From NCBI RefSeq assembly GCF_004010195.1, contig NC_057719.1:23501217-23544497 (forward strand): a DNA stretch of 43,281 bases, in the 5' to 3' direction. Below, piece after piece: positions 3,425 through 30,625 of the stretch. Each line of letters begins with the position of its first letter. Positions within the stretch are counted from its first letter, which is position 1. A model generated the notes under the pieces. That model had not been told where the DNA came from. It saw nothing but the letters and a program-made list of their open reading frames with translations, and made no database searches. Position numbers and translations under genes: made by a program. This DNA comes from Chiloscyllium plagiosum (taxonomy: Eukaryota).

Positions 3425-3645
3425 GTTAAAAATCACACAACACCAGGTTATAGTCCAACAGGTTTAATTGGAAGCACACTAGCTTTCGGAGTGACGCTCC
3501 TTCATCAGGTCATCAGGACAATCACCTGATGAAGGACCGTCGTTCCGAAAGCTAGTGTGCTTCCAATTAAACCTGTTGGACTATAACCTGGTGTTGCGTG
3601 ATTTTTAACTGTGTACACCCCAGTCCAACACCGGAATCTCCGAAT
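3425..3645 (+). mobile_element. Inverted Penelope-like element (second family) with 12 bp TSD
   Basis: 87 bp arms 3424-3510 and 3524-3610, 13 bp spacer, tail 3611-3645. TSD aatggaaattaa at 3413-3424 and 3646-3657. Confidence 0.88.
3523..3557 (+). ncRNA. Minimal type I hammerhead ribozyme motif (predicted)
   Basis: CAC | CTGATGA (3526-3532) A | GGA..TCC | GAAA G-C TA | GTG. Helix I is CAC/GTG. Predicted cleavage after CUA at 3554. The left arm holds the antisense copy with helix II GGAG/CTCC. Confidence 0.6.
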
Positions 3646-3912
3646 AATGGAAATTAAAGTTGGGAGGAATGTAAAATGGACTGGTGTGTCACTATCACTT
3701 GTCTTACTCTATTGAACAAAGTTGAAACCCACCTTTAACTCCTTTAGCATTTCTGCATCCTTCTGTACAAATCATCAAAGGTTAAGTATGAATTAAAGGC
3801 AAGTCATCTTGATACATCTGTTTGAAGTGTGCAGTTGTTTCGATTGGAAATAGTTGGGTTTACAAAATAGTGTGGTTAATGCAAGTTTAAAATTACTTTG
3901 CCCATTGATAGA

Positions 3913-4502
3913 CAGTGGTGCCTCGGAATCTGAATTTAATTCGTTCCAGGAGGCTGTTCGGATTGTGAAAATGTTCGGTTTCCGAAACTATTTTCCCCAT
4001 AAGAAGTAATGGAAAGTGAATTAATCCATTTCTGGACCCAAAACAAAAACATTTTAATGACACTTTTCACTGCAAATACACATGGTTAAGGTAAAATAGG
4101 ATGAGCAAATTACCTAAATATCAAGTAATAATAATAAAAGCAAGAAATGAATGTACTAACATAAAAATAACTTCATTTACCTTAGTGAGGAGTGCTAATG
4201 GTGAATGCACTTATTTGCTTCACTGCACTTCTTGGGTGCCATGGTGAATGTACAAGGGTGATAATTAAAATAAACAGCACAAATCAAGGTGAAAACACGA
4301 GGTAAACTAGTGATGGACACACGAGAGGTGCTTTCACGACTACTTCCCGGGACGAACTGAACAAACAATGTGCGACCTGAACGGTACGTGGTGTTCGGAT
4401 TCTGAAAATGTATTCGGATTTTGGACAAAATTTTCTTGAAATAATTGTTCGGATTCCAAGTTGCTCGAACAATAGGGCATTCGGATTCTGGGGTCATCAC
4501 TG
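3913..4502 (-). mobile_element. Tigger/pogo-like (Tc1-mariner) non-autonomous DNA transposon
   Basis: Imperfect TIRs: cagtggtgcctcggaatctgaat and (reverse complement) cagtgatgaccccagaatccgaat. TA follows the right end. Several subterminal ttcggatt motifs. An MAPKK-type transposase start remnant lies on the minus strand near 4242. Confidence 0.7.
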
Positions 4503-5024
4503 TACATACAGGTTTGTTTCGAAAACAATCCTGACAGCCTGTAACATAATTAAAATGTGAGGTATTTCTTAAAATTAATGATCAAAAGTTAATGACTTGG
4601 AAATATAAATTGCCTTTATTGATTGAGTTTTAATATCTGGTCACAGCTTCAGTATTTCAATGATCTAAAGGGATTAATGATGCACAACTAACATCTTGGT
4701 GATATTGCAGTCTCCTAATTAGCCGAAAGCATGAAGTTGTGAAAATGGACTGAAAAAATTTGTTCTAACTGACAAGTACAAGTGAAAAATTTGACTTTAT
4801 TTATATGGAATCCCTGCAGGAAAGCAAATATCCCAGTAAGATCGCAATGGTTTAGGAAAGCAACGTCAGTGGTGAAATAAATCTTCAAATTCACCCCACG
4901 ATCATTAGTTAACCATTAGCTCCCTTACTTCTCTGCAAAATACCTTTAGATAGCCATAACAATTTCTACTGATCTTAAATGAAGAGCATGACACTATCCC
5001 AAATTGTTGTATTATTTTCTCTCT

Positions 5025-5458
5025 GGGATATTTACAAACGAGAGGGACCGTATTGTTGAAGAGGAGAGTGTGAAATGGACTGGTAAGCTAGAGGAGATAC
5101 TTGTTAGGAAGGAAGATGTGTTGGACATTTTGAATAACTTGAGGATAGACAAGTCCTCTGGGCCTGACGGGTTATATCTGGGATTATGTGGGAAGCAAGA
5201 GAGGAAATTGCAGAGCCGTTGGCAATGATCTTTTCGTCTTCACTGTCCACAGGGGACTGGAGAGTGGCGAATGTTGTGTCCCTGTTCAAAAAAGGGAATA
5301 GGGATAACCCCAGGAATTACAGGCCAGTTAGTCTTACTTCAGTGGTAGGCAAAGTAATGGAAAGGGTACTGAGGGATAGGATTTATGAGTATCTGGAAAG
5401 ACACTGCTTGATTAGGGACAGCCAGCACGGATTTGTGAAGGGGAGGTCTTGCCTTACA
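5025..5458 (+). mobile_element. CR1 LINE fragment (start of RT domain)
   Basis: Encodes DKSSGPDG and DWRVANVVSLFKKGNRDNPRNYRPVSLTSVVGKVME..SQHGFVKGRSCLT, which are canonical CR1 RT N-terminal motifs. Confidence 0.93.
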
Positions 5459-5471
5459 NNNNNNNNNNNNN
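5459..5471. other. Assembly gap (13 N)
   Basis: Run of n characters. Confidence 0.99.
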
Positions 5472-6043
5472 CAATAAGCTTCTATCTGCAATTTGAGAGG
5501 GAGAGGGTACAGTCGGAAGTGACAGCATTTCTGTTGAATAAAGGGAATTATGGAGCTATGAGGGAGGAGCTGGCCAAAGTTCAATTGTGCAATACCTTAG
5601 CAGGGATGACCGTGGAGGAACAATGGCGGATATTTCTGTGTATAATGCAGAAGTTGCAGGATCAGTTCATTCCTAAAAGGAAGAAAGATCCCAGGAGGAG
5701 GCATGGGCGGCCGTGGCTGACGAGGGAAGTTAAGAAACATATAAAGTTAAAAGAGAAAAGGGAGAACATAGCAAAGATAATTAGGAAAACTGAGGACTGG
5801 GAAGCTTTTAAAGAGCAACAGAGGATTACTAAGAAGGAAATACGCAGAGGAAAAATGAGATATGAAGGTTAACTGGCCAATAATGAGTGGTGGGGGCATG
5901 GAATGCGCTGCCTGTGGTAGTGGTAGAGTCAGAATCTTTGGTGACCTTTAAGCGGCATTTGGATAGGTACATGGATGGGTGCTTAAGCTAGGACAAATGT
6001 TCGGCACAACATCGTGGGCCGAAGGGCCTGTTCTGTGCTGTAT
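5472..6043 (+). mobile_element. CR1 LINE pieces: EN-RT linker region joined directly to the 3' terminus
   Basis: 5472-5880 encodes KGNYGAMREELAKV..VEEQWRIF..FIPKRKK..PWLTREVK. 5885-6043 is the 3' end and matches the reverse complement of ~43020-43180. Confidence 0.88.
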
Positions 6044-6478
6044 TGTTCTATGTTCTATGTTCTATGTTCTATGTTCTATGTTCTATGTTCTATGTTCTAT
6101 GTTCTATGTTCTATGTTCTATGTTCTATGTTCTATGTTCTATGTTCTATGTTCTATGTTCTATGTTCTATGTTCTATGTTCTATGTTCTATGTTCTATGT
6201 TCTATGTTCTATGTTCTATGTTCTATGTTCTATGTTCTATGTTCTATGTTCTATGTTCTATGTTCTATGTTCTATGTTCTATGTTCTATGTTCTATGTTC
6301 TATGTTCTATGTTCTATGTTCTATGTTCTATGTTCTATGTTCTATGTTCTATGTTCTATGTTCTATGTTCTATGTTCTATGTTCTATGTTCTATGTTCTA
6401 TGTTCTATGTTCTATGTTCTATGTTCTATGTTCTATGTTCTATGTTCTATGTTCTATGTTCTATGTTCTATGTTCTAT
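6044..6478 (+). repeat. (TGTTCTA)n heptamer tandem repeat, about 62 copies
   Basis: Apparently perfect 7 bp period over 435 bp, directly continuing the CR1 3' tail. Confidence 0.98.
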
Positions 6479-6767
6479 ACCAAGGATAAATCTTGATACA
6501 AATGAATAAGTGATGGAGTAGAGGGGAAGTTCAGGTTTTGTTGAAGAATAGTTCTAAAAAAACATTGAAATAGCACCTCATCATGTTGACAAATGTTTAA
6601 AAATTTCTACACAATAAGTAGAATGTACTGATTGTTGTCATACAACCAACTAGGGCAGCCAATAGTATCTGATGAACAGCAATTTGATTAATCACCAATT
6701 TATTTGGTTTTCAAGGTGTTTAATGAAGAAGGAAAGTTAGCTTGAGTACTGGAGAACTTCCTACACC

Positions 6768-6990
6768 TTTTATCATTCACTCATGGCATGTGGCTATGCC
6801 AGAATTTATTACCCAAGCCTCACTGTCCTTAAGAAAGTAACATTGAGCTGCCTTTTTGAATGGCTACTGTCCATTTGCTAAAGGTATCTCACAGTGCTGT
6901 TCGGGAGGAAGCACCAGGATTTTGACACAGCAACACTGAAGGAATGATAATGCAGTTCTAAGCTAGGCTGGTGAGTCGCTTGGAGGGACT
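6768..6990 (-). mobile_element. Old LINE 3' region (part 1; probably resumes at ~7643-7772)
   Basis: The reverse complement ends gggtaataaattctggcatagcc..gtgaatgataaaa, the same tail as the SINE at 25091-25411. Continuity with 7643-7772 rests on my recalled family consensus. Confidence 0.6.
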
Positions 6991-7341
6991 CCATTACTGT
7001 ACTGTTAAGTAATATATAATAATATGTAATTTACTGATGTATGTCTACTTTCTACCTAAGATTAAATTATTATCAATAAGAACAGTTGGTGTCAAATCCA
7101 TACAAGACATCCACATAGTGCCTGACATTACAAGCACACCAAAGTATATGAGATTAAGGTTATTTTCCATATCAATGTATGTTAGGTTTTTGTTTTTCAT
7201 CTTATGCATTGATGAAAATATCTTATCTGTACCTTTTCACGTTTGGCCGAAGCTGATTAATTACATAGCAATTGTTTAGTTCAACTAGTGTATGACTTGG
7301 CTCCTGTAATGGAGGATGATCCTGAAATTCTATGCACAAGT

Positions 7342-7642
7342 ACAGTACAGTAATAGAGTCACTCAGCATGGAAACACATCTTTCGATACAACTCAAAACG
7401 CCAACTATGTTTCCCAATCTAAACTAATACTACTTGCCTGCATTTGGCCTGTATCCCTCTAAATCTTTCCTGTTCATGTATATGTCCAAATGTCTTTTAA
7501 ATGTTGTAACTATTCCTGCATCTACCACTTCTTCTGGAAGTTCATTGCACATATGAACCACCCTTTGCAAGAAAAGGTTGCCCCTCAGGTCCCTTTTAAA
7601 TCTTTATTTTCTGACATCAAAATTATGTCCCCTAGTTTTGAA
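7342..7642 (-). mobile_element. CR1 LINE 3' end fragment
   Basis: Reverse-complement similarity to the CR1 end at 1735-2040 (for example cccctcaggtcccttttaaatcttt, aaatgtcttttaaatgttgtaac). Confidence 0.85.
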
Positions 7643-8121
7643 ACACTTGCGGAAGATGATAAGGGCCATGGGTTTAGAAGGTACAGTCTCAGGACCCTTG
7701 GTGAATTTCTGTTGGGCATCTGGTAGTGGTATGCACTACTGCTACTGAGCGTCTTTGATGGAGGAAGTGAACAGAATATTTATGTCTATGTAAGCGAGTT
7801 AATGTTATTATATTTAACCTCAGTAGTTTCACTGTGTTGATGACTTATGCATAGAATTTCAGGATCATCCTCCATTACAGGAGCCAAGTCATACACTAGT
7901 TGAACTAAACAATTGCTATGTAATTAATCAGCTTCGGCCAAACGTGAAAAGGTACAGATAAGATATTTTCATCTAATGCATAAGATGAAAAACAAAAACC
8001 TAACATACATTGATATGGAAAATAACTTTAATCTCATATACTTTGGTGTGCTTGTAATGTCAGGTACTATGTGGATGTCTTGTATGGATTTGACACCAAC
8101 TGTTCTTATTGATAATAATTT

Positions 8122-8247
8122 TTTAAAAAAATTCTGTGTTACGATCGAGCCCTCCACAATCACCTGATGAAGAAGCATCGCTCCGAAAGCTAGTGTGCTT
8201 CCAATTAAACCTGTTGGACTATAACCTGGTGTTGTGTGATTTTTAAC
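8122..8247 (+). mobile_element. Penelope-like 3' fragment with hammerhead motif (same family as 3425-3645)
   Basis: 8157-8247 matches 3519-3609. CTGATGA at 8164-8170, GAAAGCTA at 8185-8192. Flanked by taattt, and absent from the left arm of the inverted duplication. Confidence 0.85.
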
Positions 8248-8324
8248 TAATTTAATCTACTTATATCTTAGGTAGAAAGTAGACATACATCAGTAAATTA
8301 TATATTATTATATATTACTTAACA

Positions 8325-8482
8325 CAGGACAACCTCAATTATCCAAATGAGACTGGCGGGGAGTATTTTGTTCAGATAACTGAGAGTTCGGATAATGGAT
8401 AACGTTTTTATGGAACCTTGAGATCTTATTAAGCTAATCCAAAATTCGGGTAATTGATGCTCAGATAATCAAGGTTGTTCCA
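8325..8482. mobile_element. Tigger-like MITE
   Basis: Imperfect TIRs ggacaacctcaattatcc and agataatcaaggttgttcc. Internal repeated (tt)cggataa-like motifs. TA follows the right end. Confidence 0.65.
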
Positions 8483-8523
8483 TAGCTAGTTACATTACAT
8501 TAGATATACATGATGTTGTCTTG

Positions 8524-9115
8524 TGTTAGGGACTAGACCAGATCACCTCAGAATATTTTAAGGTAGCCTAGACCCTATTTTTTAAATATATTTTAAAGGA
8601 AAAGGTAAAGTTTTGTGTCCCACATGCAATTTGACTGGTCAAACTACTCGAAATTAAGCAAAACGCAGTTTATTCAAACACTGTCATTAAAATATAACAA
8701 AAGAAAGAGGAATTAAGAATAACGTAACTCTATTGGAAAACTTAACAGAATAATAGACACAGTAACTATTACTAATTAACTGTTCCAATATAGTAACATC
8801 CTATAAATACACACCTTGGCAAAAAAAGAAAATTCAGGCATAGATTTTCACATGCAGTTCTCTAATCCAGGAGGAAAATAAATCAAGAGAAAATTCAGAA
8901 AGAGTAGCAGACCCCATTAGCTTCCGATGCTGCTGAAGAAAACCCAAAACCCGAATATCTGGATCTGTGAGAGCTGACCACACCAATTCAGGCTGTTTAA
9001 AAAAAATACCAAGGCCTCTCAAGCTGGTTACTCAAGTGGTCTCCAGTGGCTAGCTCGGCATCTCTTTAAAAAAAAACACAACAAAATAACTTCTTAAAGT
9101 GACGGCATCACCACG
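8524..9115. mobile_element. Solo LTR
   Basis: Starts TGTT and ends CACG (probably a mutated CA). 4 bp TSD cttg at 8520-8523 and 9116-9119. Similar in layout to the LTR at 33458-34101. Confidence 0.7.
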
Positions 9116-9449
9116 CTTGTAGGATATCAGGCTCAACATATGTGTAAGTACATCTCTAATTCCAAGAATAATCACTGAAACATACTAATTAACTCCTCCT
9201 GGGAGCAGTCCTTCATACCGTGAAGAGCAGAGCTTATCATTTGATGGCAGTTAACCCTTTCAGATACAAACTGCCTTATACAACAGCAGCATTGTAGAAT
9301 TTTGCTCATAGCTTCAAAGATCACATCAACAAAGGTGAAAGTTTGTTCACCTGAAGAAGCAACATTTTAAGCAAGCCACTTTAAATATGGAACTGATCTG
9401 AGGACTTTACAGACAGCTGCCCTTTCCCAAGTTACAATAAATGCAAAGT

Positions 9450-10050
9450 TACACAAATGCTGAAGATCTGAAACAAAAACATAAAAGAGACTGAACAGGT
9501 CTGGCAGCATCTGTGGAAAGAAAAACACAGATAACGTTTTGGGTCCAAAATTACTCTGAACTGAAGGAAATTGAACTGAAGGAAACTGAAAAATAATGTT
9601 TTGTGCTTTTGACAAAAGGGGAGAAGAAGCAAATGGAAAAGATAGGGAGGTGCCGAGAGCAAAAGGCAATTGAATGGTAATGGTAGTAGTGAAGAGATCT
9701 CGATGAGGAATTATTGTAAATGCTAGGAGTTAACAGCAGAAAAGAGCTCTCCTGAGAGAAAATCCATGTAAACAATACAGTGGGAGTGCAAGGGAAGCAG
9801 ATAATGGAATGTAATCAAATGGAAGACAATTGTCATGTTCAGAAGATGTTAAATGCAATATTGAGTCCTGATGGCTATGAAGTACTAAGTGGAAAATAAG
9901 ATATGTCGCTCTCACTTACGTTGAGCTTCATTGGAATACAGCAGAAGGCCTAGGACAGAAATGTTAGTGGGCGATTAAAATGGTGCATTGAAATGACAAG
10001 TAATTGGACGTTCGGCATAATGTTTTACAGACAGACCAAGGTATTGGCAA
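9450..10050 (-). mobile_element. Decayed Penelope-like element (GIY-YIG C-terminus plus terminal repeat)
   Basis: Minus strand ~9840-9910 gives frameshifted YLIFHL / PSGLNIAFN, resembling a PLE endonuclease C-terminus. 9455-9560 resembles the PLE ends at 21928 and 26154. Confidence 0.6.
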
Positions 10051-11927
10051 TTAGGAATAGTTATACAGTCAGAAATCTGTGATTGTGAACAAGTATCCTC
10101 ATGATGAAACAGTTTGTAGATTTCCTTCTACTTCCAGAGCCACATGGCCATGAAGATCCGGATAATATTTTCAGATATTACAGGACGTGGTGTTCTGGTT
10201 GGGTAGTTTACCATTACCAACCCTCCTTTCTTTACTCATTTAAAATTAACCAAATAAGTCAAGAGAGCCGTGGCTGGGACACAGAAACAAAAAGCAAACA
10301 GTCAACCGAAACTGACAGAACCGGAATAGAAATTTACTAAAATTAAATTGCAATATCACTATGGAGGTGAAGATGCACCCCTATGCTGAATATGGGGCCT
10401 GTCTAATTATTGGTGGTAAAGGACAGGCCATTGATGAGTCTAAACAGAAAAACCAATTGTCTCACATTAGGTAGCTTTATTCATGGTAGCAGCAAGTACA
10501 GTTTGCATTACTGGCCAGGCATTATTCCTAAGAATTTTCTGGAGGTGTAATAATATCTGATACCGTTGGATACTCATGCAAAACACAGTTGCCTCCATCC
10601 AAAGATACCACTTATGGGATTGGGTAGCAGTTACTGCAACACTAAGTCTCTTAGAGACATTATCATATACAACTGAAGATCTTCAACTCTCGAGTGAGAG
10701 CCCATGTGGAATGGTGGCAAAGAAAGGTATAGTCATGCAAGGAGGAAAAGAACCACCTTTGAGTCAAGCTGGGCCAATAAATAAATAGCCAATTATTTTA
10801 GGACCTATTTTCAGATGGAAAGCCGATGATGTTCTTTGAGCATATGGTTAAATAGAAGGTTTAAGGCTAGATGGAAATACCTCAGTGCTCACTGGTGAGT
10901 GATGGTGAACTGCTGGCACCTCTCACAATTCCAAAGGAACTTGCCCAGTGACTTGGATGCAATTTTATGTTGCTGTCTCATTGATAGTAAGGGCCAATAG
11001 TAAGAATCATTGAGATGTTATTAAGCTGACTAATGAATAAGCATAAACTAACAGGCCCAGAAGAGTACAATTTTGTGGTCAATTAATCTAAAAATAAACA
11101 CCCATTACACTGTAGCATCTGATTCCCATGAAGCACTGATCTGCTCTTTGTAATGCTAATTCCATCATATTCAAAGACGTTCCATGGCACAAATCACTTG
11201 ACTTACATTATTATGTTGCAAATTGCAGAAACAATGTGTGAATGCATGCTTTCAAATTAACAGCAGTTGAGCAGTTAGTATCAAAAATCTGAAAAGATAG
11301 ATTGAACACCGTGAGCTTAGCATATAAATAATACAAAATTTGGGAGACAGAACATAAACTTTAAGAAAAAATTATCTCTGTTTCATTTTGCTGAGGCATT
11401 TTTAAAAATGCTGTTTTGCTTTCCATAATGTTAAGAATTATATATCTGAAGGGCAAAGAAATGATTGATGGGGGTAGATTTCCATCTGCACAACTAAGTG
11501 CAGTGTAATGCTGAAACAGACATTAGAGAGGATAATGTAATGAGTAAGATTGCACTCTCATGGCAAAGCTTGCTCAATTTTGTGACCATTTAATCAAATC
11601 AAAGGGAAATCTTACAGGCATTATTATAGAATTATGGTTCTTGCTTTCTATTTGTGCATTATTCCAGTGCAATACAGATTCAAAATGTGACTCCCCTCTA
11701 ACTTTACCTAAGTGATGTGTGCAGGTGAAACACTTTTTTTATACCCAATCTAATTTAACTCCCTGTTGAAGTGACAGCACCATAGATTCAGCAGAGCTGC
11801 AAAATTAACACACATCCCACTCCTGTCATATTCAGGTCAGGCAGGTTAGGTTAAAATTACCTTTATAATTGCTTGATTCTGCAAAAGGTACATATGTCAT
11901 TATTTTTGAAAGTAGCTGTAAGCTTCC

Positions 11928-12892
11928 TCCTTCAGCATGCATTGCATTCAAAAGGAAACATCCCTTCCTAGATATTCAGAGGTATATAAGACAAAAGACA
12001 AAAATACTCTTTGAAGAAGGAATACTGTGAGTTCAATTTTATGCTCCCTTTAATGACACGGACAATGTTTGGAAAGTATGATAAGAATAGAAAAATCAAA
12101 ATCTCGAAGTCAAGAAAAAAAATTCCAAGTTCATAATTAAGTTTGTAAATGTGTTTAGAGCTATCAAATAAAGAAACGACACTTTCTCATTCTGTTGTAT
12201 TGTCTGATGTGCTGAATGTTCCCTTTGCCAGCTTTACAAAGTTACTGAAATCAGGCATAAAAGCCTTCATCTTCTTCATCTGCGGCACACAGCATGCAGT
12301 GGTTGCATTAAAAATTCTAACTGCTGAGAGCAAAGTACTTCATTCTAACAGAGAGGAAACATGGAGGTACCCACCAAAATAAGACTTTGGTGTTGATGAG
12401 TTTTTAAAAATTTTGCCTGCAGCATGTAGTGTGCACCCTGTAGATGCATACGTCTTCTTGTGATGAAAAATTCATACATTTAAATACTAAATATACTGCC
12501 ACCACCATTTATAACTGCTACCATATTTCATTGGAGAGCAAAAAATGCAAATAGTGTGATTTTAGACACAGTGTGAAGAACTTATTTTTGTCAAGTCAAA
12601 AGAAACTGCTTAAAACCAGAAGTTCTTCTGTTTACAATGGTGCTCCTTACAAAGGTTTTTTCCTTCAGCTTCCATTGCATTCACATGGAAACATTCCTTC
12701 CCAGATATTCAGGGAAATACAAGACAAAATACAAAAATATTCCTAAATGAGGGAATACTCAGTTGAGTTTTTTCCTCCCTTTAGTGGTGCAGACAATGTT
12801 TGGAAAATATGACAAGAAAAGAAAAATTAGAATCTACATGTCGAGAAAAACATTCCAAGTTCATAATTAAGGTTTTAACAGTGAGTTTAGAG
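11928..12892 (+). repeat. Diverged direct duplication, ~230 bp copies at 11928-12160 and 12661-12892
   Basis: Colinear shared blocks (attgcattca, agatattcag, aagacaaaa, ggaatact, gacaatgtttggaaa, attccaagttcataattaag) offset by about 733 bp, roughly 75% identical by eye. Confidence 0.9.
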
Positions 12893-14562
12893 TCTCACTA
12901 ATGAGCATTGATTAAGCTTGTTTCCATATATTTGCAATTCAATATCAGTCTACCCCCATCTCATTTCTTTGCACTTCTCTGATCTCTCCCTCCCTGGGAA
13001 ACTAATGGTACCAGTTTCCAAAATGAAACTGACAGCAATTACCTGGTGATAACAGCTTGCGTCCCTAGACTGTGTGTCTTCACCACAAAGTCCCTGCAAG
13101 CTCCACAAACATTGTCTCAACATGGGATCATCAACAAATCACCAGCTTCACCACATTGACATGGCTGCTCTCTGAATAACTCACAAACCATTTCAGCCCT
13201 CCAGGATTCTACCTTAAAGCTCAGGGACACCCAGTTTTGCATACTTCTGCAAGTTGCTTTATACAAGGAGTGACAAATCCATCTTTCTGTGCACTCGCTT
13301 TGCACTTACTTGGTACTTCTCAGCCTCTCGGCCAGACTTGCTTTTCAAAGCATAGGGAGAGGCCAGTAGCTTATCACAGTCCAGAGCACTGGACAGTCAA
13401 AGGGAAGTCATGTTGCTGAATGACACCATGCCACATCAATGTCACATCTGCAGAATGTGCCAGCAACTTACACAACAAACCCACTGCATGTGTATAAATT
13501 AAATGATCGCTGTTAAAAGTGAAATGGAAATCAGTCTTTAGTGGGAAGAAGTGGTCGATAATCAATCAGAGGTAATGCAATAATCCATCATGAGGCTCGT
13601 CTGATTCCAGTCCAGGGATTCTGACCTGGGCAGTCCTACAGGACTATTGTCACCAGTGCAAGGATTACATCTATGTCAGTTGGAGTGCAGTGGAGACATC
13701 AAACCAGGATATGGGCAGATATTTCCAGCAATGAGTCAAAGGGAGGGACTGAGTACAATGCCAGTGGATGAATTAGCATCAAGTGGTGATGCAGGAGACA
13801 TGGTGAAGTGTGTCCAGTGCAGAAGGCAGGAAGTGTGAATAGTTTGGTGGGCTAAGGTAGCTAAGAGCCATTGAATGGACAGCTGGTACCAAATGTTGCA
13901 AAGTCCCAGCAGCAGCAAGCACTTTTGTATCTCCTGCCGTACAATTCTATGAGATAGGTATCACAGAAGCCAGGTACACAATTAATGAGATGAAGAGCAG
14001 AAGATTCTTTAGGAAAATCTGACCAAAGCCATGGGCAGACTGCCAGCCATAACTGCTCTGCCATTCAATGAAATCATGGCTGATCTGATAATCCTCAACT
14101 CCACTTTCCTGCCCTTTCCCCATATACCTTGATTCACTTACTGATTAGAAATCTGTCCCCCTCAGCCTTGAATATAATTATTGGCCCAACCTTAACCAAC
14201 CTCGGCAATAAAGAATTCCACAGATTCATTACCATCTGAGAGAAGAAATTCCTCCTTATCTCTGTCTTAAATGGGTGACCCCATATTATGATATTATTGT
14301 GCTCTGATTCTAGACTCTTTCACAAGTGGCAACAACCATTCTGGATCTACCCTGTCAAGTCCCTCAGAATCTCATGTTTAAATACGGTCTTCTCTCATTC
14401 TTCTAAACTCAAATGAGAACAGGTCCAATGAATTTAACCTGTCTCCCTATACCTGCTATCAACCTAGTGGACCTGTTCTGAACTGTCTCCAGTGCCAGCA
14501 TGTCTTTCCTTTGATAAGAGGCACAATACTATTCACAGAATTCCTGTTGTGGTCTCATCAGT

Positions 14563-14801
14563 TTCTAGATTAGAGTGGTGCTGGAAAAGCACAGCAGTTC
14601 AGGTAGCTTCCGAGGAGCGACAAAATCGACATTTCAGGCAAAAGCCCTTCATCAGGAATACAGCTGTATTCCTGATGAAGGGCATTTGCCCGAAACGTCG
14701 ATTTTGTTGCTCCTTGGATGCTGCCCGAACTGCTGTGCTTTTCCAGCACCACTCTAATCTAGAATCTAGTTTCCAGCATCTGCAGTCATTATTTTCATCC
14801 C
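14563..14801 (+). mobile_element. Spacer-less palindromic Penelope-like element with 14 bp TSD
   Basis: 101 bp arms centred on cag|ctg at 14663/14664. Tail 14765-14801. TSD gtggtctcatcagt at 14549-14562 and 14802-14815. Confidence 0.9.
14670..14701 (+). ncRNA. Minimal hammerhead ribozyme motif with intact core (predicted)
   Basis: TC | CTGATGA (14672-14678) A | GGGC attt GCCC | GAAA C-G TC | GA. GUC triplet ends at 14699. Helix I is only 2 bp locally. Confidence 0.6.
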
Positions 14802-14829
14802 GTGGTCTCATCAGTGTCTTGTATATGGA

Positions 14830-15167
14830 ATCCCTACAGTGTGGAAATAGGCCATTTGGCCCAATAAGTCCACACCGACTCTCCATAGAGTATCTCACCC
14901 AGATCCATTCCCCTTGCCCTATTCCTCTACATTTCCCCTGACTAACGCACTTAGCCTACACATCCCTGAACACTGTGGACAATTTAGCACAGCCAATTAA
15001 CCTAACCTGCATAGAATTGTGGGAGGAAACTGGAGCACCCAGAGGAAACCCATGCAGACACAGGGATAATGTGCAAACTGCACACAGACAGTCGCCTGAG
15101 GCTGGAATCGAACCCGGGTCCCTGGTGCTGTGAGGCAGCAATGCTAACCACTGAGCCAAAGTGTCCC
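14830..15167 (-). mobile_element. HE1-type tRNA-derived V-SINE
   Basis: The reverse complement reads tggctcagtggttagcattgctgcctcacagcaccagggacccgggttcgattcc (A/B boxes), followed by the V-domain gtttgcacatt..gggtttcctctgggtgctcc. Confidence 0.92.
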
Positions 15168-20035: not shown

Positions 20036-20301
20036 TTAGTTGGTTGATGCACATGCAGTGTGCTTGCTGTAGAAGCTGCTGGTACATGTTTTAGGTGTGA
20101 CATTGACCTGGCACACTGCTGTGTAAATTGGTAACAAACAGCCTGCCTCTTTACCTGTGCTAAATAACAACACCAGCCACAAAGCCTGTAAGTTAGAGCA
20201 GAAGAGCCGATAGACTAAAAAGCAATGCAAACCAAAGATGCTGGTGACCTCCGAGTCAGTGCAAGGTGAGTGAGTGCCAGGACATTAAGCCAAGAGTCAT
20301 A

Positions 20302-20496
20302 AGATTCTGGATTAGTAGTGCTGGAAAAGCACAGCAGTTCAGGTAGCATCCGAGGAGCAGTAAAATCGACGCCTTGAAGGAGTCCCTCTCCCACTGCAAC
20401 TCTCAGGTCATTTCCTCTGCCCTGAAGATGCTGTGCTTTTCCAGCACCACTAATCCAGAATCTGGTTTCCAGCATCAGCAGTCATTGTTTTTACCT
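20302..20496 (+). mobile_element. Inverted Penelope-like element with 13 bp TSD (same family as 14563-14801)
   Basis: Left arm 20302-20371, right arm ~20429-20463, ~57 bp spacer, tail 20464-20496. TSD aagagtcataaga at 20292-20304 and 20497-20509. Confidence 0.85.
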
Positions 20497-20959: not shown

Positions 20960-21154
20960 AGTTTACTGAATGGACCTCTCTAATTTGAAATCCAATTTTG
21001 ATCTTGCTGTTGTGCACCTCCTTGTATGCCTCACTCAATCTAAGCACCCTTTGATTTGTATGTCCTTGTTTGTTATGTTCTGCCTGTACTGCTCGCAAAA
21101 CAAAACTTTTCACCATACTTCAGTACATGTGATAACAATAAATCAAATCAAATC
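20960..21154 (+). mobile_element. LINE 3' end with (AAATC)n tail, Rex1/Babar-like
   Basis: tgtactgctcgcaaaacaaaacttttcacc..gtacatgtgataacaataaatcaaatcaaatca. Clade assignment is from memory. Confidence 0.55.
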
Positions 21155-21734
21155 ATTTTGTTTCTCAGAAAAAGAGAGGAAATTAGCGAACTGCAAAGAA
21201 ATTAAGTTTAAACTTTAAAGGGAAAATTGAAAAAAAATTTCCTGGCATTGGGAATCTGATTTTTTTTCATTGTCATTGTATTTTATCAGCGTTCTCATCA
21301 TTGGGTATGTCAGTCAAGACAGTGGGCAATTTGTAGCAGTATCAGATTCCTTATTTGTGACACTAGTATTAAAATGTGTTCATTACAGTGCTAATCAAAC
21401 TGAATCTAGTCACCATTCTTAAATTTACCAAGGAATATGTTTAAAGTGAGAATCTGTGTATTTCTGCCTGGATCACTGATTCTATCCCAAAGTGGAACTC
21501 AACCCCAAAATCTCCATCATTACGTTAGTAATTATCAACAGTATAGGCTTGTCAGTTGTTGGGGGGGGAGAGGCGGTGAGTCATTAACAAATTCATCATG
21601 TATATGCCAAAGAAAGCCTTGATTTTCTAGACTCCTTACACAATTACCAATGGGTAGAATAGTAACTGTTTGATGGAGCTGCAGACTATCTGAGGCCAGA
21701 CTGTGCTTTAAGAATCCTTTACAATCAACGGTTT

Positions 21735-22074
21735 TGAAATAGCTCCACAAAGACGGTATCCCGTCACTAGGTCACCCTTTATTTACATGTGCATATTACT
21801 TGATACGGGTCCAACCCTCTCAGAAGCAGTGAACAGACCCTCTGACACTCCTGTTTATACCTATTAGCCAGGGGTTTCTGATTGGACCAGATTAATAGCC
21901 CCAATCAGGGAACTCATACTCTATGAGAAACAAAAATAGAAATTGATGGAAAAACTCAGCAGGTATGGCAGCATCAGTGGCGAGAAATCACAGTTAATAT
22001 TTTGGGTCGAGTGACCCTTCGTCAGATTTGGGTTCTATGAGGTCAACCTGGCTGACTTCATTACAATCACTACA
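21735..22074 (-). mobile_element. Solo LTR with 5 bp TSD
   Basis: TG..CA termini. TSD ggttt at 21730-21734 and 22075-22079. The minus strand carries CCAAT, TATAAA (~21855) and AATAAA (~21780) in promoter-to-polyA order. Confidence 0.85.
21928..22033 (-). mobile_element. Penelope-like terminal fragment nested in the LTR, with decayed hammerhead
   Basis: TSD tctatgag at 21920-21927 and 22034-22041. The reverse complement reads CTGACGA A GGGTC actc GACCC aAAA (G12 mutated). Confidence 0.8.
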
Positions 22075-22889
22075 GGTTTCAACTTCATTACAGGTTTCGT
22101 CTTCTCAGCTTCTTCAATGGTGCCAAATACCTTGAAACCTTTCTTCAGTTTTGTGCAGTCTTTGTGGTACTGGTTCTCTATTTCCTACGTTTTGCTTTTT
22201 TCTTAGATATTGTATTTCAGACAGTGTCAGTTGTTGCAAGTGGAATATGGTAAAGGACAATAAATCCTGCTTAGGCTTCACTTTCACCAGCATAATAGCA
22301 AAGAATATGATAATAGAGTGAAATAATATTATGAATATGGGAAATGTACACACATTCACAAATATAAACACACATACATCACTCATGCCAAGGAACTTGA
22401 GAAACGCTTAGAGTGGTGCACTTTTAGACTATTTCTCAAATTAAAATCCCCCTTAATATTGTAAAATACAATTTTAAAAATGCAACAGCCATATCACTAT
22501 AATTTTATTGAATAAATTAAACTCCTGATTATGTATTAATTTTCCGGTGTCAGTATCCAAATGTTTCACACATTTGAATTCTTTCTGTTGTGTTAGATCG
22601 GCACTTTTCGGTTAAACTTGGAGGGTGTATTATTGTTGGAAATAAAATGCTGACATTAAAATCTGGGAACCCTGACAGGTGTGTGAAATGGAAACATTCC
22701 ATCCAAATTATGAAGAAAATTGAGAATAGCTAAAACTATGTAGTATATATGTTAATCACTCAATAATTGGGTTTGCAAAAGATTTTGGCACGTTGCTATA
22801 GACCTCTAACTCTTTCTGCAATACAGTCAAATGAATTACTTTTTAATTGATGCATATTGATGACTGTGAATTCAGCTACTCAATGTATT

Positions 22890-22904
22890 GCTGCCATCTA
22901 CAGG
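22890..22904 (-). promoter_or_regulatory. Candidate CTCF site
   Basis: Minus strand CCTGTAGATGGCAGC fits the CTCF core CCnSYAGRKGGCRS. Motif match only. Confidence 0.3.
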
Positions 22905-24352
22905 TAATAACTTACCGAAGAGATCAGATATTACTGCTCATTCAGCGAGTTAGGATTTCAGTCAGGTAACTTGACTTTGACATGGTTTGCGGTTTTACTA
23001 AGTCTCATTTCTAAGTTTGATTACATGGAATAAGAAGAGATTGCATTGACTCTGGCATGTCGGCAGTTCCCCTTTAAGCTTCTGTTTGGCATAAGTCAAC
23101 TCAGAGAAATATTTCACTGTTCACCTATTGATCTTGGGACACACTATAGGTGCTGTGATATTTCATTCAGAAGTGCTGCTATCAATCTAATGCCACATCT
23201 AAACTAAAAGTAGCATGAATTTAATGTCACACATAATGTGACAACAGCCAAAGTCAGGCTATAGTGCAAAGAATAAATAGAGTACAATCTCAATACTTTG
23301 CTAATGCTGGCAAGTTAGGGGAAAGTTTTTCCCTATTGGACAAATTACTCTTCTACATGGAGTAGCTGTCCACTTAAAACTCAATTAGTGCAGATTTTCA
23401 ATGCATTGAAGTTATATTCAATATGACTGACATTATTAGTTTGTAACAGACAATACGACAGACATTATCCACATTGCAACTACTATTTGTTTCAATGGGA
23501 AACTAACAGAAGTCATAAAATTGGCCATTTTAAGAAATGCTTACAATTAAAATACATGCCCCATATGCCGAGGAGAAGTATAGAACAAATAAATCAAAAG
23601 TTTGATTTCAATTTTGATTAGCGTCAGTTAGCTGTTTGTTGTTGACGTAGACCTGAGATAGACTACATAAAGTTTGCATTTTACAGCAAAGGTGGCTTCC
23701 AGTATTCACCATTTTTTAAGCAGAAAGTTGTACACCAACCTCTGGTGACCACACATGTGCAATTACGTCAGGAAAGGCAGTTGCTGTCTAGGTCACACAG
23801 AACTTCCACAAGTTTTATTACATCATTATCTCATTTGGAAATATGTATCATTAAAATATATGTAAGGACCAGCAAAATTCAACATATTCACCCAACCGCT
23901 ACTCTGTTCAGCCAAGACATTTAGTGCTTGCCATTCCAGATAATTTTTTTTTGACACAGTTATAAGTTTTAATTACTCATAAACAACTTTGCTGGCCTTG
24001 AAAAGTAAATGTTCAAAAAGCAAAGAATAGTTTCTACTAATTTTAATTACAGTCAAAGAAATTGAAAATAAATAAAATATTTGTTGTATATATTTCTGTC
24101 TCTTATCTCTAAATATGTTACTCAATTCCTATCTAATTTATTATTTTGCATTTATGTAACTATGCTAACAAATGCCTCTGTTTCAACTCCGTGGTTCTGT
24201 AAGGACTTGCAAGTCAATTGGTAATTAAATACATAATTTCCCTTAGTTCTCCATTAGAGTGCACCATGCTGAAATGGACTTCTAATCCCTGCAAATTACA
24301 AAGCAAAAAACTGTTGATAAGTCTAAGTGTGATGAACAGTTGGTGTCATTTT

Positions 24353-24627
24353 ATTAGATTAGTGTGGAAACAGGCCCTTGGCCCAACAAGTCCACGCTGA
24401 CCCTCCGAAGAGCAACCCATCTAGACCCATTCCCCTACACCTAACACTACGGGCAATTTAGCATGGCCAATTCACATAATCTGCACATCTTTGGATTGTG
24501 GGAGGAAACCCACGCAGACATGGGCAGAATGTGCAAACTCCACACAGACAGTTGCCTGAGGCAGGAATTGAACCCGGGTCTTTGGCACTGTGAGGCAGCA
24601 GTGCTAAGCACTGTGCCACCGTGCTGC
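24353..24627 (-). mobile_element. HE1-type SINE
   Basis: Reverse complement of the copy at 36108-36421, with internal deletions. Confidence 0.92.
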
Positions 24628-25090
24628 TGACCATGAAAAAAACCTGACAATTAATTGTTGTACACTTTGCAGATATTGCTCACTGTAATACATACGTTGA
24701 ACTCCAATTGCATTAAACATCTTCTATATTATTGTGCAGAAAGGACGTCCATGGATTGAACAATGTTACCCCGCTAGACTGGAGTTTTAATAAGCAGTGG
24801 CTATAGATCCTGAAAGCAATTGCAATCAAGTATTCTTCTTCAAAGTGCTAGGGATGTAACTTTGCTTTTTTCAAGATATTAAGGAAGTTACAAAACTATT
24901 TAAATTACATCTGTTTTATTTGGAATAAGTAAGTTTATTGGATCAAATTAACTATTGTTGCTCAATACTTTTAAGTTAACTTTCCATGGAACAATACTGT
25001 GCTTTATGACTGTTATTCTGTATTCTTTTCAGCTTACCATGAAGACCTTGTCAGTGTTAACCATTATGGGGCCCAAATGTTAACTATTAC

Positions 25091-25411
25091 GGGAAGGTGG
25101 TGGCTTAGTGGTATTATCACTAAAATGTTAATCACGACACCCAGGTTCGAATCCCGCCATAGCAAATGGTAGAATTTGAATTCAATAAAAATCTAGAATT
25201 AGACATCTAGTGATGACCATGAAACCATTGTCAATTGTCAGGAAAAACCCATCTGATTCCCTATGCCCTTTAGGGAGGGAAACTGCCATCCTTACCTGGT
25301 CTGGCCGACATGTGATTGCGATCCACAGCAACATAGTTAACTCTTAACTATCCTGTGGGCAATAAATGTTGACCTAGAAAGTGATCCCCTCATCCTGTGA
25401 ATGAATAAAAA
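25091..25411 (+). mobile_element. tRNA-derived SINE with LINE-derived tail
   Basis: A-box ggtggcttagtgg, B-box ggttcgaatccc, tail gggcaataaatg..gtgaatgaataaaa. Confidence 0.8.
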
Positions 25412-26153
25412 GAAAGGATAGGGGATTACCTGCAGGATCAAGCTAAACAGTATCATGGGTAAGATTGTTCTCAACACATTTGTACATTTGCATCCTTAAA
25501 GCTCTTCAGTACTTCACCAAAGGGGCAGGTTTTTATTAAATATTGATCTAAACAATGAGAGAGGGAATTGCAACCCAAAATCACTCTTCATTCAACATCC
25601 TGATGTGTACTTTTTCACCTGAGGTCCTTGGATAATGATTAGGAAAAGTATATTGCTTATTTTTCATCATTTAGACAGTAGTTTTATCAATGGTAGTATC
25701 TTACAACTGCTTTGTCAGAGATTAGTTAACTACTTATTTAATGTGAACCATTTCAATCCATATAACTCAGCAGCATACCTGGCAGGGCACAAACCTATCA
25801 AAAGGTGAATCAAAAAAGTTATCGAAAAGGCGTATATTGTTGCAAATATACAAAGTTGACTGTTGAAAGGAAAAAGGTGACTTTCTCTTCAATGAAATGA
25901 ACATAAGTGGAATTGATCTTTGTACCTTGCGTATTACATTCACTCATGTTTATCTTCATAAAAATAGAATTCAAGTACAAAGCAATAAGCAACAGGTCAA
26001 AGCTGTACTGATTGTTAAGCATGGGAGATGTGTATTGTTTGCTGGAATGGACTTTTCACAATTCATTTATCTCTTAAGTCAGGAACATGAGGCCAGCATT
26101 TCACTGCAACTCCAAAGGTAATTGAGGACGTTCCAGCTTGACTCATATGTGTA

Positions 26154-26252
26154 ACAAAAACAGAAATTGCTCAAAAAACTCAGCAGGTCTGGCAGCATCT
26201 CTGCAGAGAAATCAGAGTTAATGTTTCAGATCTGATGACCCTTCCTCAGAAC
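26154..26252 (-). mobile_element. Penelope-like terminal fragment with hammerhead motif
   Basis: Same family as 21928-22033. The reverse complement reads GTT CTGAGGA A GGGTC atca GATCT GAAA CA TT AAC. Confidence 0.78.
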
Positions 26253-26829
26253 AGGCGTCCTGTTTGTAAACTATTTTATATAATCCTGAGCAAAAACTGG
26301 GAAGTACGTAAACCTTATTCACTCAAGGGTTAAATTGGCAGGATAGGATTGACAATCTGTATGGTAATGCACCTAATTCTGCTATGTATTTATATACTCC
26401 ATTGGCATTTTCATTTCCACTCGTGAATGGAGCAGACTATGTGATTCATGAAATATTGAATTCCTCATATCTATGGTTATTCTAAAAGTTTTCAATGCAC
26501 AAGTGACACAGCTGTCTGCTTTTCCACATGCTCTTGAGTAATTGCTGCAATTTAAACCTAGTTGTCAGCAAGATATGATTCCTCACCATACAGAAAGCAT
26601 ACCAACTAAATCTCAAAAAAAGCCACTATAACATTTGCCAATGGTTTAAAATACAAGCCTCTCCACTCTAGTAAAAGCAAAAGTCACCAAATATTTTCTC
26701 CCTGTATTGTTCCAACACAGCAAGAAAACAATGGGCATGTCATTGGGTTTTACTCAATCAGTGATAGAAATCTTAGTTATTTTTGGAAATCCAAGGGAGC
26801 AATACTTTCCACCATTGCAGGCAAAATCT

Positions 26830-27140
26830 CCCCAGTGTCATTGCTAATATTTATCACTCAACCACTATCTTGAAGAAGATTATTGCATTACTGCTTTTAA
26901 GTGCTTGCTAAGCATGTGCCACAGTGGTAGTGTCCCTACCTCTGAGCTAGGGGGCCTGGGTTTAATTCCTACCTGCTCCAGAGATGTCTGAACAGATTGA
27001 TTAGAAGCTATCCACAACAGGTTGCTACATTTCCTATATTATAGCAGTGACTACATTTACAGACACTTAATTGGCTGTCAAGCACTTTTGGACATGCTGT
27101 GGTGGTGAAAGCTGCAACATAAATATAGATTTTCCTTTCT
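26830..27140 (+). mobile_element. Deu-domain SINE remnant with a nested tRNA-like SINE head (~26915-27015)
   Basis: ctaatatttatcactcaacc..ctacatttcctatattatagcagtgactac..ttaattggctgt..aagcactttt. Nested head cacagtggtagtgtccctacctctgagc..ctgggtttaattcc. Confidence 0.55.
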
Positions 27141-28219
27141 TACTCCTCAGACTTATTTCATGTAACTCAGTATAGAGTATGGAACAAACTGTTATCTTCT
27201 AGATCCAAAAGGCTCAGTACTATGCCTCACAATGGCCTCATCCATTGATGATGCAGGTCATTTTCAGAGCTTAGTCATGAACATGTGGATTTGATGGTCC
27301 AGGCACACCATGATAGAAAGCTTTAGCAAATTCATCAAGAGTTGATACTTTTTGCCAAAACTAAATGCAATAGAAAAGGGAGAATTTCACAGTTGAAATT
27401 ACTGTCATCAAAATTCTTGTATAAATGTTTAAAGTGCTTGCATAAAATTCTTCTCCACAATCATAAGGGATATGCTTAAGACATAAAATGACTACTCTAA
27501 ATTGTATGCGCTTCTTTTTTAATTAGGGTCTGACTTGACAATGACCATTTCTGTTCTTATACGTTTGCTTGGTGGGCCATCAACAACCACACACATGGAA
27601 TACAGTGCCTTTAACACAGTAACACTTCATATTCATAAGTGCTAATTGGCAGTTGTTACAGATATGAATAATTAATGTTAAATTTACTTCTTTAAGCTGT
27701 TTTATTGTCTTTCAGCAAACCAGTTGGGGACACTAAACATACTCATTATCCGTGAATCAGTCAGTAGCACTTACACATCTTCAGATGGTTGTGAGTTCAA
27801 GACTCACCCCAGGGGTTTGAGCATGAAATCTGGGATGACACCGTGATACAATACCAGGAGACAGACACAATGTGACACAAATCTTTCTGCTTTTTAATTT
27901 TACTTGATCATGCCTAGTACACATCCTTCAATAATCTAATCCCAAAAGCAAAATTTGCTGAGAACAGCAATAAAACAGAAAATGCTGGAAACGTTCAAGC
28001 AGTCACAGCCTCGGGAGCAAAAACACCTAGAAAACTACAGGTTTTTAATCAGAACTGGGGGAAAAAATGGAAACATAACAGGTTTTAAACAAATGTAAAA
28101 GCAGGGAAACATGCGAGAAAGTTAGGAAATAAAGAAGAAAATGAAAGGCATGGGATAGAATGGAATATGGTAGGAGCTAAATGACAAAATGCATGAGGAG
28201 GGTGAATGTAAAACTAAGT

Positions 28220-28402
28220 GAAGTCACCTTTGTCTTACCATAGGGCTGCTCTCTCATTAGGAAGAGGTGACTGGTAGTGGTTTAGCTGGAAATTCACCAC
28301 ACCTCAGGAGAGATTGAGAAGATGAATCTTTCAGCTGGTGAGGTAACTGAACCTATTGACATCATAAACAAACCATCCATCTACTGCGCTAAACCGACCC
28401 CC
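28220..28402 (-). mobile_element. tRNA-derived SINE, decayed
   Basis: Reverse-complement relative of 19828-20035 (caccacacctcagg, gctgctctctcattag). Confidence 0.6.
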
Positions 28403-28454
28403 AACGATCGCTAAGTAATAGGTAAACAAAAGAGACCAGCATTTGTACATCTTG

Positions 28455-28590
28455 CATCAAGGCACTTCACAACCAACAAAGTACTTCTGAAATGTTGTAA
28501 TGTAGGAATCACAGCAGCCAATCAGCACAGGCAAAAAGAAATGTGACAATACCAGATAATCTGTTGATTGGAGATAAATATTGGCCAGGT
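28455..28590 (-). mobile_element. Deu-domain SINE remnant
   Basis: tgttgtaatgtaggaatcacagcagccaat..ccagataatctg..gataaatattggccagg. Confidence 0.6.
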
Positions 28591-30033
28591 CAAAACAAGA
28601 ATAGTGGTAATGATCTGAATTGTTCAATTCAAAGCAAGTTTTGTCATTCCTTGAACTATTGTCAAACTTCATTAGAACTGTAAGGAAGCTGAGAACAGGG
28701 ACTGGAGAGGCAGATTGTAAATTAAAATTTTAAACAAACAAAAAATTGGGTCACCCTTGCACACATAATAAATCACCAAACCAAGCTCTATTCTACATTT
28801 GATCCTTTCAATATGTAGGAGATCACCTCATGAGAATTGATATCAACATATGAATGTAAGAGAAATGTAAGTATATTGCTCAGATACAAAATGGTGTGGA
28901 AGATTGAAATCTATTAGAAGGTCATTGAGCTCAAGCATTAACTCTGTTTCTCCATCTAAAGATGTCACCTGGCCTGCTGTGTATTTCCTGCATTTTCTGT
29001 TCATTTCAAGTAAATTGCTATTCCATTTGGAAGGCATGCTTCAGAACCAGAAAGAGGTAAGAGAACTCCAACAATTGAATGGAAAAGTGCCTTGGAAAGG
29101 AGATGGGGTTTCAGGGGTGATTGAAGGTGGATTAGGAGGGAATAGTCCCTTTTTGAATACTGAATGGAGAGAAGTGTGGAGCAAAGATGTATTCAGTGAT
29201 TGCATCACACATTGAAAGAGTAGGCAGAAGGGGTGAGATGAAAAGGAGGACTACAGGAGCTCTATAGTGGTTCTGGGAAGGTGGGACACTAATCAAAGCA
29301 GAAATAACAAAAGAATAATCACTAATACAGACACGTCACTTGCTTCCAAATAACATACAACATCTTACAAGATCCAAAAGCTGGATTTGAACAAGGCATT
29401 TTGTCAATGCTCTCAGGTCAGCATTGTTGAAAAATCTTTTGGCTTCACATCTGTTCTTTGAGCTGAAAAATGAAAAAAATTAACCCAAGTGGCAGTTCAC
29501 AGAAAAGTAAAATTGAGGGCCTCATTATGATTTGCTTCTAGCTTCCTAACTGCAATTTAATTGGAACCTCTCTGAACAGATCTATATCATGAACAGAAAT
29601 CTATATGGTGAGTAATTATTTTCTCCCACACAAAGCTCTAGTGGGAAATAAAGTGCAGCATGTCATTTACATGCATTAAGAATAGGGCCCTGCTGTTACC
29701 TCACCTTAGATGTTGTATGCAGATAAGAAAAAAGCTCCAGAGGTTAGGAAATGGGTTTTGGCCCATTTTTAGAGCTGTGATTATCGACATGTTTGATGCA
29801 TACACCAGAGATTGGAGATCCGAAATGCAATGTAAGTTAGGCCTTTAATCTCATCTTTTCTAGTGAGATATTGATGTCAATGTCAATTCATGTCAACGCA
29901 GTTCGCAGGCCTTCAAGTATGTTCTGGGATGGATGCGTATTGCGGGAGGGCAAAGTGTGGGCCAGTATTAGGCACAACATTATAATATGTAAGTGGTCAA
30001 ATTCTGTTTAAAGTAGCTAATTTTTAATAATGC

Positions 30034-30625
30034 TCAAAGTTTGTGAGAAGATTTGTAGCTCGGGTGCTCGTTGTTGTGGTTCTGTTCGCCGAGCTGGGAA
30101 TTTGTGTTGCAGACATTTCGTCCCCTGTCTAGGTGACATCCTCAGTGCTTGGGAGCCTCCTGTGAAGCGCTTCTGTGATCTTTCCTCCGGCATTTGTAGT
30201 GGTTTGAATCTGCCGCTTCCGGTTGTCAGTTCCAGCTGTCCGTTGCAGTGGTCCGTATATTGGGTCCAGGCCGATGTGCTTATTGATTGAATCTGTGGAT
30301 GAGTGCCATGCCTCTAGGAATTCCCTGGCTGTTTTCTGTTTGGCTTGTCCTATAATAGTAGTGTTGTCCCAATCGAATTCATGTTGCTTGTCATCTGCAT
30401 GTGTGCCTAGAGGCATGGCACTCATCCACAGATTCAATCAATAAGCACATCGACCTGGACCCAATATGCCGACTACTGCAACGGACAGCTGGAACTGACA
30501 ACCGGAAGTGGCAGATTCAAACCACTACAAATGCCGGAGGAAAGATCACAGAAGCGCTGCACAGGAGGCTCCCAAGCACTGAGGATGTCACCTAGGTGGG
30601 GGACGAAACGTCTGCAACACAAATT
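30034..30625 (-). mobile_element. 5'-truncated Penelope-like element with inverted arm, GIY-YIG C-terminal remnant and 11 bp TSD
   Basis: 220 bp arms 30099-30318 and 30406-30625. Minus ORF HADDKQHEFDWDNTTIIGQAKQKTAREFLEAWH..SINKH is a PLE endonuclease C-terminus. TSD tttaataatgc at 30023-30033 and 30624-30634. Confidence 0.92.
30576..30615 (+). ncRNA. Minimal hammerhead ribozyme motif with intact core (predicted)
   Basis: GCA | CTGAGGA (30579-30585) T | GTC..GAC | GAAA C-G TC | TGC. GUC ends at 30612. The antisense copy is at ~30108-30148. Confidence 0.65.

Follow-up and report, generated by a model that had tools for sequence, protein, structure and literature searches.

How does one stretch of the genome of Chiloscyllium plagiosum come to carry a dozen cores of the hammerhead ribozyme, and do these cores act where they now lie? 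The stretch, hereafter the window, comprises 43,281 nucleotides (contig NC_057719.1 of assembly GCF_004010195.1, positions 23,501,217 to 23,544,497), and our analysis makes it very probable that the cores are minimal type I hammerhead ribozymes (min-HHRs) lying in the pseudo-long terminal repeats (pLTRs) of Penelope-like elements (PLEs), four families of which have been left behind as short, 5'-truncated and likely dead copies, the ribozyme likely mattering only in the RNA of the parent element.

A strict descriptor, which demands perfect CUGAnGA and GAAA boxes, a paired 15.2-16.2, U16.1, H17, a helix II of at least 3 bp and a helix I of at least 2 bp, and which allows one inserted base between positions 9 and 10.1 (the +1 form), finds no match in 100 dinucleotide shuffles but six sites in the window. 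They lie where an earlier reading of the same sequence (the original prediction) had placed a motif composed of CUGAnGA, one extra nucleotide, helix II, GAAA-NN'UH and helix I. Decayed copies added by homology bring the core-bearing copies to 12: to the cores matching the predicted sites (given by C3 and strand: 3526+, 8164+, 14672+, 2322+, 34645+ with C3 lost, 30579+, 26249- and 22025-) are added others on partner arms that had not been noticed before (3508-, 14655-, 30145- and 2181-). The cleavage positions proposed, 3554, 14699 and 30612, are exactly N17, an agreement of position only, and helix III is indeed loop-less and palindromic, with ACGU or AGCU in the commonest forms. The family-specific stems exist as well, even if three of them require correction: GGAG:CTCC, the helix II attributed to family 1, belongs to the 3508- arm and to the commonest form of that family, the 3526+ core having only 3 bp and the 8164+ core an A.C mismatch; helix I of family 2 consists of just 2 bp followed by U.U in both main subfamilies; and helix II of family 3 has 6 bp including one A.G mismatch. 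An Rfam scan of the window at E<=1 returned eight matches and no hammerhead, the mir-4662 matches corresponding to the palindrome of family 2, so standard models miss these motifs, as had been supposed.

The nature of the motifs emerges from longer copies elsewhere in the genome, which was searched with each family, the best 40 of 1,047-3,882 candidates being scored and the longest copies walked upstream. All four families are 3' ends (pLTR plus tail) of PLEs, an attribution already suggested, since their longer genomic copies have a reverse transcriptase (RT) and a GIY-YIG endonuclease (EN) upstream. This linkage was found at loci L015, L203, L205 and L216 for family 3 (Pfam RVT_1, E 1.3e-11), L245, L250 and L252 for family 1, L229, L230 and L240 for family 2 (Pfam GIY-YIG, E 4.5e-5, above cut-off) and L267 for family 4, the hammerhead of which lies downstream in 12 of 19 loci chosen on the family 4 endonuclease. 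Copies bearing both domains show the motifs Y(I/V)DD and then YIG(E/Q)T, in that order, namely an RT followed by a C-terminal GIY-YIG endonuclease as in endonuclease-bearing (EN+) PLEs. A CX2-5CxxC linker separates the two domains in families 1, 2 and 4 (L245/L252, L229/L230 and L267, respectively); no such finger was found in family 3. Families 1, 2 and 4 thus resemble the EN+ PLEs of the Neptune clade in their RT, linker, C-terminal GIY-YIG domain, pLTR, inverted 5'-truncated copy and 30-40 bp tail (Craig et al. 2021, PMC8557442). Families 2 and 4 are sisters, because their tails are 81% identical over 32 nt (E 2.5e-6) and their endonucleases 59% identical over 63 amino acids; the family 1 endonuclease is more distant from both (31-34%), and that of family 3, the available piece of which is largely N, gave no significant match in the same comparison. 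The four families had been described as unrelated, which is wrong: judging from their sequence motifs, three are Neptune-type (1, 2 and 4) and one is Poseidon-type (3), two clades of a single retroelement superfamily.

Family 3 has a peculiar arrangement. In L205 and L216 the hammerhead of the upstream pLTR runs straight into the open reading frame (ORF), the start codon being composed of A9, the extra U and G10.1, and 42 of the 44 copies aligned, which represent four subfamilies, retain this triplet; the extra base of this Poseidon-type family is thus fixed also by the AUG. The same layout, with AUG in the core, ORF start at stem II and no linker finger, characterizes the Poseidon element PAc of Anolis carolinensis, the hammerhead of which is protein-assisted and dispensable for insertion in vitro (Frangieh et al. 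2024, PMC11167929). Family 3 is a family separate from PAc, having its own stems and a putative activity. The overlap with AUG could mean that cleavage has been lost and that the motif persists as a structure for protein binding or for the start of translation. Other features lean the same way: insertion in vitro survives mutation of the PAc hammerhead, and RNA-seq shows no ends at the PAc cut site (PMC11167929); family 2 has a very weak helix I; and position 17 is U in family 4. However, no subfamily of either clade has lost the catalytic boxes, the G10.1-C11.1 pair or the palindrome of helix III, although the stems vary, and PAc does cleave in the presence of protein, with partial rescue by C3G/G8C (PMC11167929). 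We consequently regard a purely structural role as unlikely.

How far the window represents the genome can be judged from 80 stretches of 10 kb, taken at round positions of large contigs and containing 765,363 called bases. They hold 55 strict +1 motifs, versus 0.05 per shuffle, and a stricter cut on the stems leaves 23 of the 55. By homology, the same sequence contains 269 fragments, 165 of which cover the core, indicating that the window is typical. The density of strict motifs is 72/Mb (bootstrap 55-90), from which we estimate 194,000-320,000, roughly 250,000, for the whole assembly of 3.56 Gb. A descriptor without insertion gave four matches, all re-readings of the same +1 sites; allowing two insertions gave one match and a looped helix III none, and no independent family appeared in these 765 kb. 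The claim that all families use the +1 base thus stands. An extra base in the same position, between A9 and G10.1, was reportedly described by De la Pena and Flores in 2001 for the (+) hammerhead of chrysanthemum chlorotic mottle viroid (CChMVd). This viroid motif has a complete helix III and works as a monomer, and differs in this from the loop-less motifs considered here.

The class itself has been known since 2014, extra base included, and the families described here are new members of it. Min-HHRs in the pLTRs of metazoan PLEs follow the consensus CUGANGAH; GAAAN-palindrome-NUH, in which a base between 9 and 10.1 and the palindrome are recurrent features, pairs on opposite strands having also been noted (Cervera and De la Pena, PMC4209133). 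The +1 base is therefore not the unusual variant that it had been taken for. The published motifs share with ours the extra base, G10.1-C11.1, the absence of loop 3, the palindromic 15.2-16.2 and a short helix I, as well as the presence of many covarying families per genome, mostly as single truncated copies; the G15.2-C16.2 site type of family 1 also appears in a published turtle row, most rows having the C-G type, while helix II measures 4-6 bp here versus 7-8 bp in Schistosoma (PMC4209133). The searched supplement text of that work contains no cartilaginous fish, and the portion available to us of PMC6155905 adds nothing on sharks. Published counts of min-HHRs are about 2,000 in Schistosoma, 4,000 in coelacanth and 9,000 in Xenopus (PMC4209133), and were obtained with another descriptor and a proximity filter, so that comparison with our figure of about 250,000 is not like for like.

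Covariation of the stems had been proposed from comparison across the families. Because comparison between supposedly unrelated families is weak and homologous subfamilies serve better, we examined it within families, fetching six older subfamilies so as to obtain a family 3 set of 44 copies and a set of 66 copies for families 2 and 4. In family 3, 93% of 407 cells are paired, compared with 26-43% in slid controls, and according to subfamily the outer pair of helix I is G-C, U-A or C-G and pair 3 of helix II is C-G, U-G or U-A. In families 2 and 4, 86% of 659 cells are paired (slid controls 16-43%) and both partners have changed in 6 of 11 pairs: helix I has C-G or U-A as pair 1 and U-A or C-G as pair 2; in helix II, pair 2 is G-C or A-U and pair 4 C-G or U-A. 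Family 1 offers a single helix I change, in a cluster of three copies. Within the core, G10.1-C11.1 is G-C or decayed G-U in 37 of 37 rows of family 3 and 59 of 63 rows of families 2 and 4; C15.2-G16.2, which forms a CpG, is broken in 14/37 and 30/64 rows, respectively. In both sets, cells in which both partners have changed are more numerous than in any of the 500 shuffles, a measure in which cells count copies.

Several observations weigh against our interpretation and need to be considered together. The measures of covariation that are robust to relatedness, namely pairs changed on both sides and extra pair types, do not rise above the shuffles (494/500 and 465/500; 442/500 and 475/500). 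Pfam confirmed RVT_1 or GIY-YIG in only three of eight PLE pieces and gave no match on the endonuclease piece of the window (0/1). The clade names rest on motifs and not on a tree, and the families called Neptune-type may be of Neptune or Nematis type. Single-strand folding returned helices I and II as the best fold in only three of eight copies, none from the window. In copies chosen on their flanks, finally, substitutions number 7/700 in the core versus 135/4865 in the flanks, with per-family P of 0.11-0.16. As regards covariation, since cells count copies and the pair-count measures stay within the shuffles, the data amount to a handful of compensatory events between homologous subfamilies, not to formal significance; of the covariation originally claimed, this much survives. 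Could the resemblance then be due to chance, given that repeats multiply a single chance match and copy counts are not independent? The motif occurs in two PLE clades and at least 10 subfamilies, at the known position of PLE hammerheads and with compensatory changes. Position and covariation together refute chance resemblance, to which we give virtually no credence.

The sheer number of motifs suggests another possibility, that the dispersed copies form an active ribozyme load cutting host pre-mRNAs and selected in place. Besides the density of about 72 strict motifs/Mb, this would accord with a raw core substitution rate approximately one third of the flank rate and with copies being read through in RNA of a related organism. 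The lower raw rate is better read as reflecting variation inherited from source elements, because shared variants number 0 in the core and 25 in the flanks. Private core mutations are not significantly depleted (5 observed versus 7.8 expected in 53 copies, one arm per locus, P 0.21), and G12, which lies within a CpG, decays like any other, being mutated in 9/53 copies versus 19/138 flank CpG G sites. Its retention in old subfamilies (4/11, 4/9, 5/10, 0/7, 1/9 and 10/10) is biased by the state of the query copy and carries little weight. Selection thus appears to act on the source elements, with none detectable on inserted copies in what is a small test. Furthermore, partner arms lie on opposite strands, so that a transcript across both would fold into one long hairpin instead of a dimer; strict pairs on the same strand are just three in the 80 sampled stretches, 0.6-4.6 kb apart; and published min-HHR monomers do not cleave while dimers cleave poorly (PMC4209133). 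In raw polyA single-cell reads of the related organism (about 2/100 of the reads), families 3 and 2 are covered with no pile-up of molecule ends, in a library unsuited to cleavage ends. An active load is for these reasons very improbable. The very large number originally inferred holds, whereas calling it a ribozyme load overstates function, the copies being dispersed truncated relics.

The architecture of these relics is best seen in the window. Family 1 forms a head-to-head inverted insertion at 3425..3645 (cores 3508- and 3526+, N17 at 3480 and 3554), with the tail on the + arm only and a 12-bp target duplication (3413-3424 / 3646-3657). Family 2 has a similar insertion at 14563..14801 (cores 14655- and 14672+, N17 at 14628 and 14699; tail on the + arm; 14-bp duplication 14549-14562 / 14802-14815) and a decayed inverted pair at 2088..2453 (cores 2181- and 2322+), the arms of which are separated by other sequence within an 11-bp duplication (2077-2087 / 2454-2464). 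The inverted insertion of family 3 at 30034..30623 (cores 30145- and 30579+, N17 at 30112 and 30612) includes the C-terminus of the endonuclease at 30132-30404 on the minus strand, and is flanked by 11 bp (30023-30033 / 30624-30634). All four inverted pairs hence have target duplications of 11-14 bp. An inverted 5'-truncated copy with a one-sided tail of 30-40 bp and a target duplication, as found here, is a feature of EN+ PLEs, the inverted copy and tail being a known PLE layout (PMC8557442; PMC3846280). A further inverted pair of family 2, at 20304..20491, consists of tails broken off inside or before the hammerhead and has no core. Solo copies are those of family 1 at 8130..8248 (+; core 8164, helix II mismatch), family 2 at 34645..34735 (+; decayed, C3 lost) and family 4 at 26150..26255 (-; core 26249, CpG-decayed) and 21928..22025 (-; core 22025, G12 lost). 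The solo copy of family 1 lies within the right arm only of a larger inverted duplication (7003-7341 / 7843-8324), apparently non-PLE, with arms of about 340 bp, 99% identity and a 501-bp spacer; it was inserted after the duplication, or the region is mis-assembled.

In all four families the 3' end of a copy falls at either of two positions some 40 bp from each other, at approximately +95 and +135 from C3 (+80 and +125 in family 3). Two internal sites of RT initiation demonstrated for PAc (PMC11167929) correspond to these ends, and reads of another organism have loose ends separated by 36 nt, which match the same bimodal pattern. In Neptune-type copies the 5' ends pile up at the hammerhead. 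From 172 random Neptune-type copies with bit score of at least 80, 142 aligned to a long natural copy at 86% identity or more, a set in which short fragments ending beyond +30 are under-detected. Among the 142 copies, 125 extend as far as +15. The 5' end of 95 of them falls between +15 and -15; the other 30 go beyond -15, and just six of those stop within the following 30 nt (Fisher P 2e-8, the arms of a pair not being independent). Solo copies show the same peak at the hammerhead edge (28/57). A length effect behind this pile-up was considered and rejected, because the median stops of arms with the 40-bp tail and of arms lacking it are -1 and -6, not 40 nt apart. Reads of the related organism show a drop and inverted joints just upstream of the core. 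Family 3 lacks the pile-up (2/11), an analysis in which masking of the arms at the palindrome centre and subfamily divergence may confound.

Short inverted pairs supply many of the 142 classified copies: 76 are arms of such pairs in families 1 and 2, and 79 if family 4 is included. Moreover, some identical junctions recur among query-selected matches. One could then ask whether the short palindromic units spread on their own, as non-coding elements comparable to retrozymes or miniature inverted-repeat transposable elements. Yet junction positions vary from copy to copy, the units are nothing more than 3' ends of protein-coding PLEs, and none of the eight tandem-repeat rows of the window is a tandem hammerhead array. 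Non-LTR retrozymes, which derive type I hammerheads from PLE pLTRs and have been reported from one chondrichthyan, are head-to-tail tandem arrays (Li et al. 2026, bioRxiv 10.64898/2026.07.22.740005), whereas the copies here are solo or head-to-head. Autonomous spreading is accordingly a highly unlikely origin.

Returning to relics of PLE insertion, published work on these elements suggests how they would arise. The element protein would nick target DNA and start reverse transcription inside the RNA, some 95 or 135 nt downstream of C3; synthesis would then copy back through the uncleaved hammerhead, and most Neptune-type cDNAs would stop at its 5' edge, leaving stubs of about 100-150 bp made of hammerhead plus tail. 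For the loop-less helix III to form in the parent RNA, two hammerheads would have to pair through their ACGU/AGCU palindromes, and any cleavage would be weak or assisted by protein. Folding of monomers and self-dimers did not return the hammerhead dimer, with models unsuited to dimers. The 5' pile-up could reflect a transcript start just upstream of the hammerhead, or stalling of the RT. We tentatively propose, as a possibility somewhat short of an even chance, that the template RNA naturally begins at the 5' edge of the Neptune-type hammerhead, with a transcription start 10-15 nt upstream of C3, or else that this edge is a hard stop for the RT, internal priming then mass-producing the hammerhead-plus-tail cassettes. 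In the available parts of the Neptune clade description (PMC8557442) such piling of 5' ends is not mentioned.

Some other features of the elements deserve mention. Upstream of helix I, a pyrimidine-rich stretch ending in CAG resembles a 3' splice site; it lies about 17 nt upstream of C3 in L069/L075 (family 2) and 2 nt upstream in L092/L119 (family 4), and recurs in L330-L339, a variant of family 2. In the Penelope element of D. virilis an intron ends at helix I (PMC4209133). Between about +45 and +130 from C3 in families 2 and 4, a tail segment near +48 is complementary, by eye, to one near the tail end, suggesting a predicted stem-loop that holds both RT start sites. In a single case (L064:1450-1660), a family 2 copy lies within a family 1 copy, apparently at the helix III/cleavage-site region.

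The remainder of the window is repetitive too. Two 3' ends resembling CR1 or other long interspersed nuclear elements (LINEs), at 5885-6064 and 43001-43180, are 98% identical, 37 kb apart and in opposite orientation, and one finishes in 62 perfect copies of a 7-mer (6044-6478); LINE-type RT fragments lie at 5168-5869 (+) and 39443-39817 (-), with Pfam RVT_1 below cut-off. Copies of a repeat resembling tRNA-type short interspersed nuclear elements occur at 15014-15163, 24415-24627, 36110-36420 and 42728-43002, and a degenerate pyrimidine-rich tandem array of 16/28 bp at 36642-36916. No host exon was identified, Pfam on 25 of the 55 long frames of the window giving only the two LINE RT pieces.

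What stands out, then, is only the estimated number of motifs and the fact that most short copies end right at the ribozyme. Neither the density of about 72 strict motifs/Mb (about 250,000 per genome) nor the Neptune-type 5' ends at the hammerhead were found in the literature searched, nor were these families, in a search without Repbase, where the elements may be filed, and without most subscription journals. If our tentative reading of the 5' edge is true, it would account for a load of about 250,000 minimal hammerheads of intact appearance, which exceeds published vertebrate counts some 25-60 times, and would map across the genome where PLE RNA starts. The sharp wall of 5' ends makes the 5' end of the PLE template directly testable, and the Poseidon-type family 3 repeats the AUG-in-core layout of PAc. 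With its many subfamilies bearing compensatory changes, this genome is a resource for the question of whether, and when, PLE hammerheads cleave in vivo.

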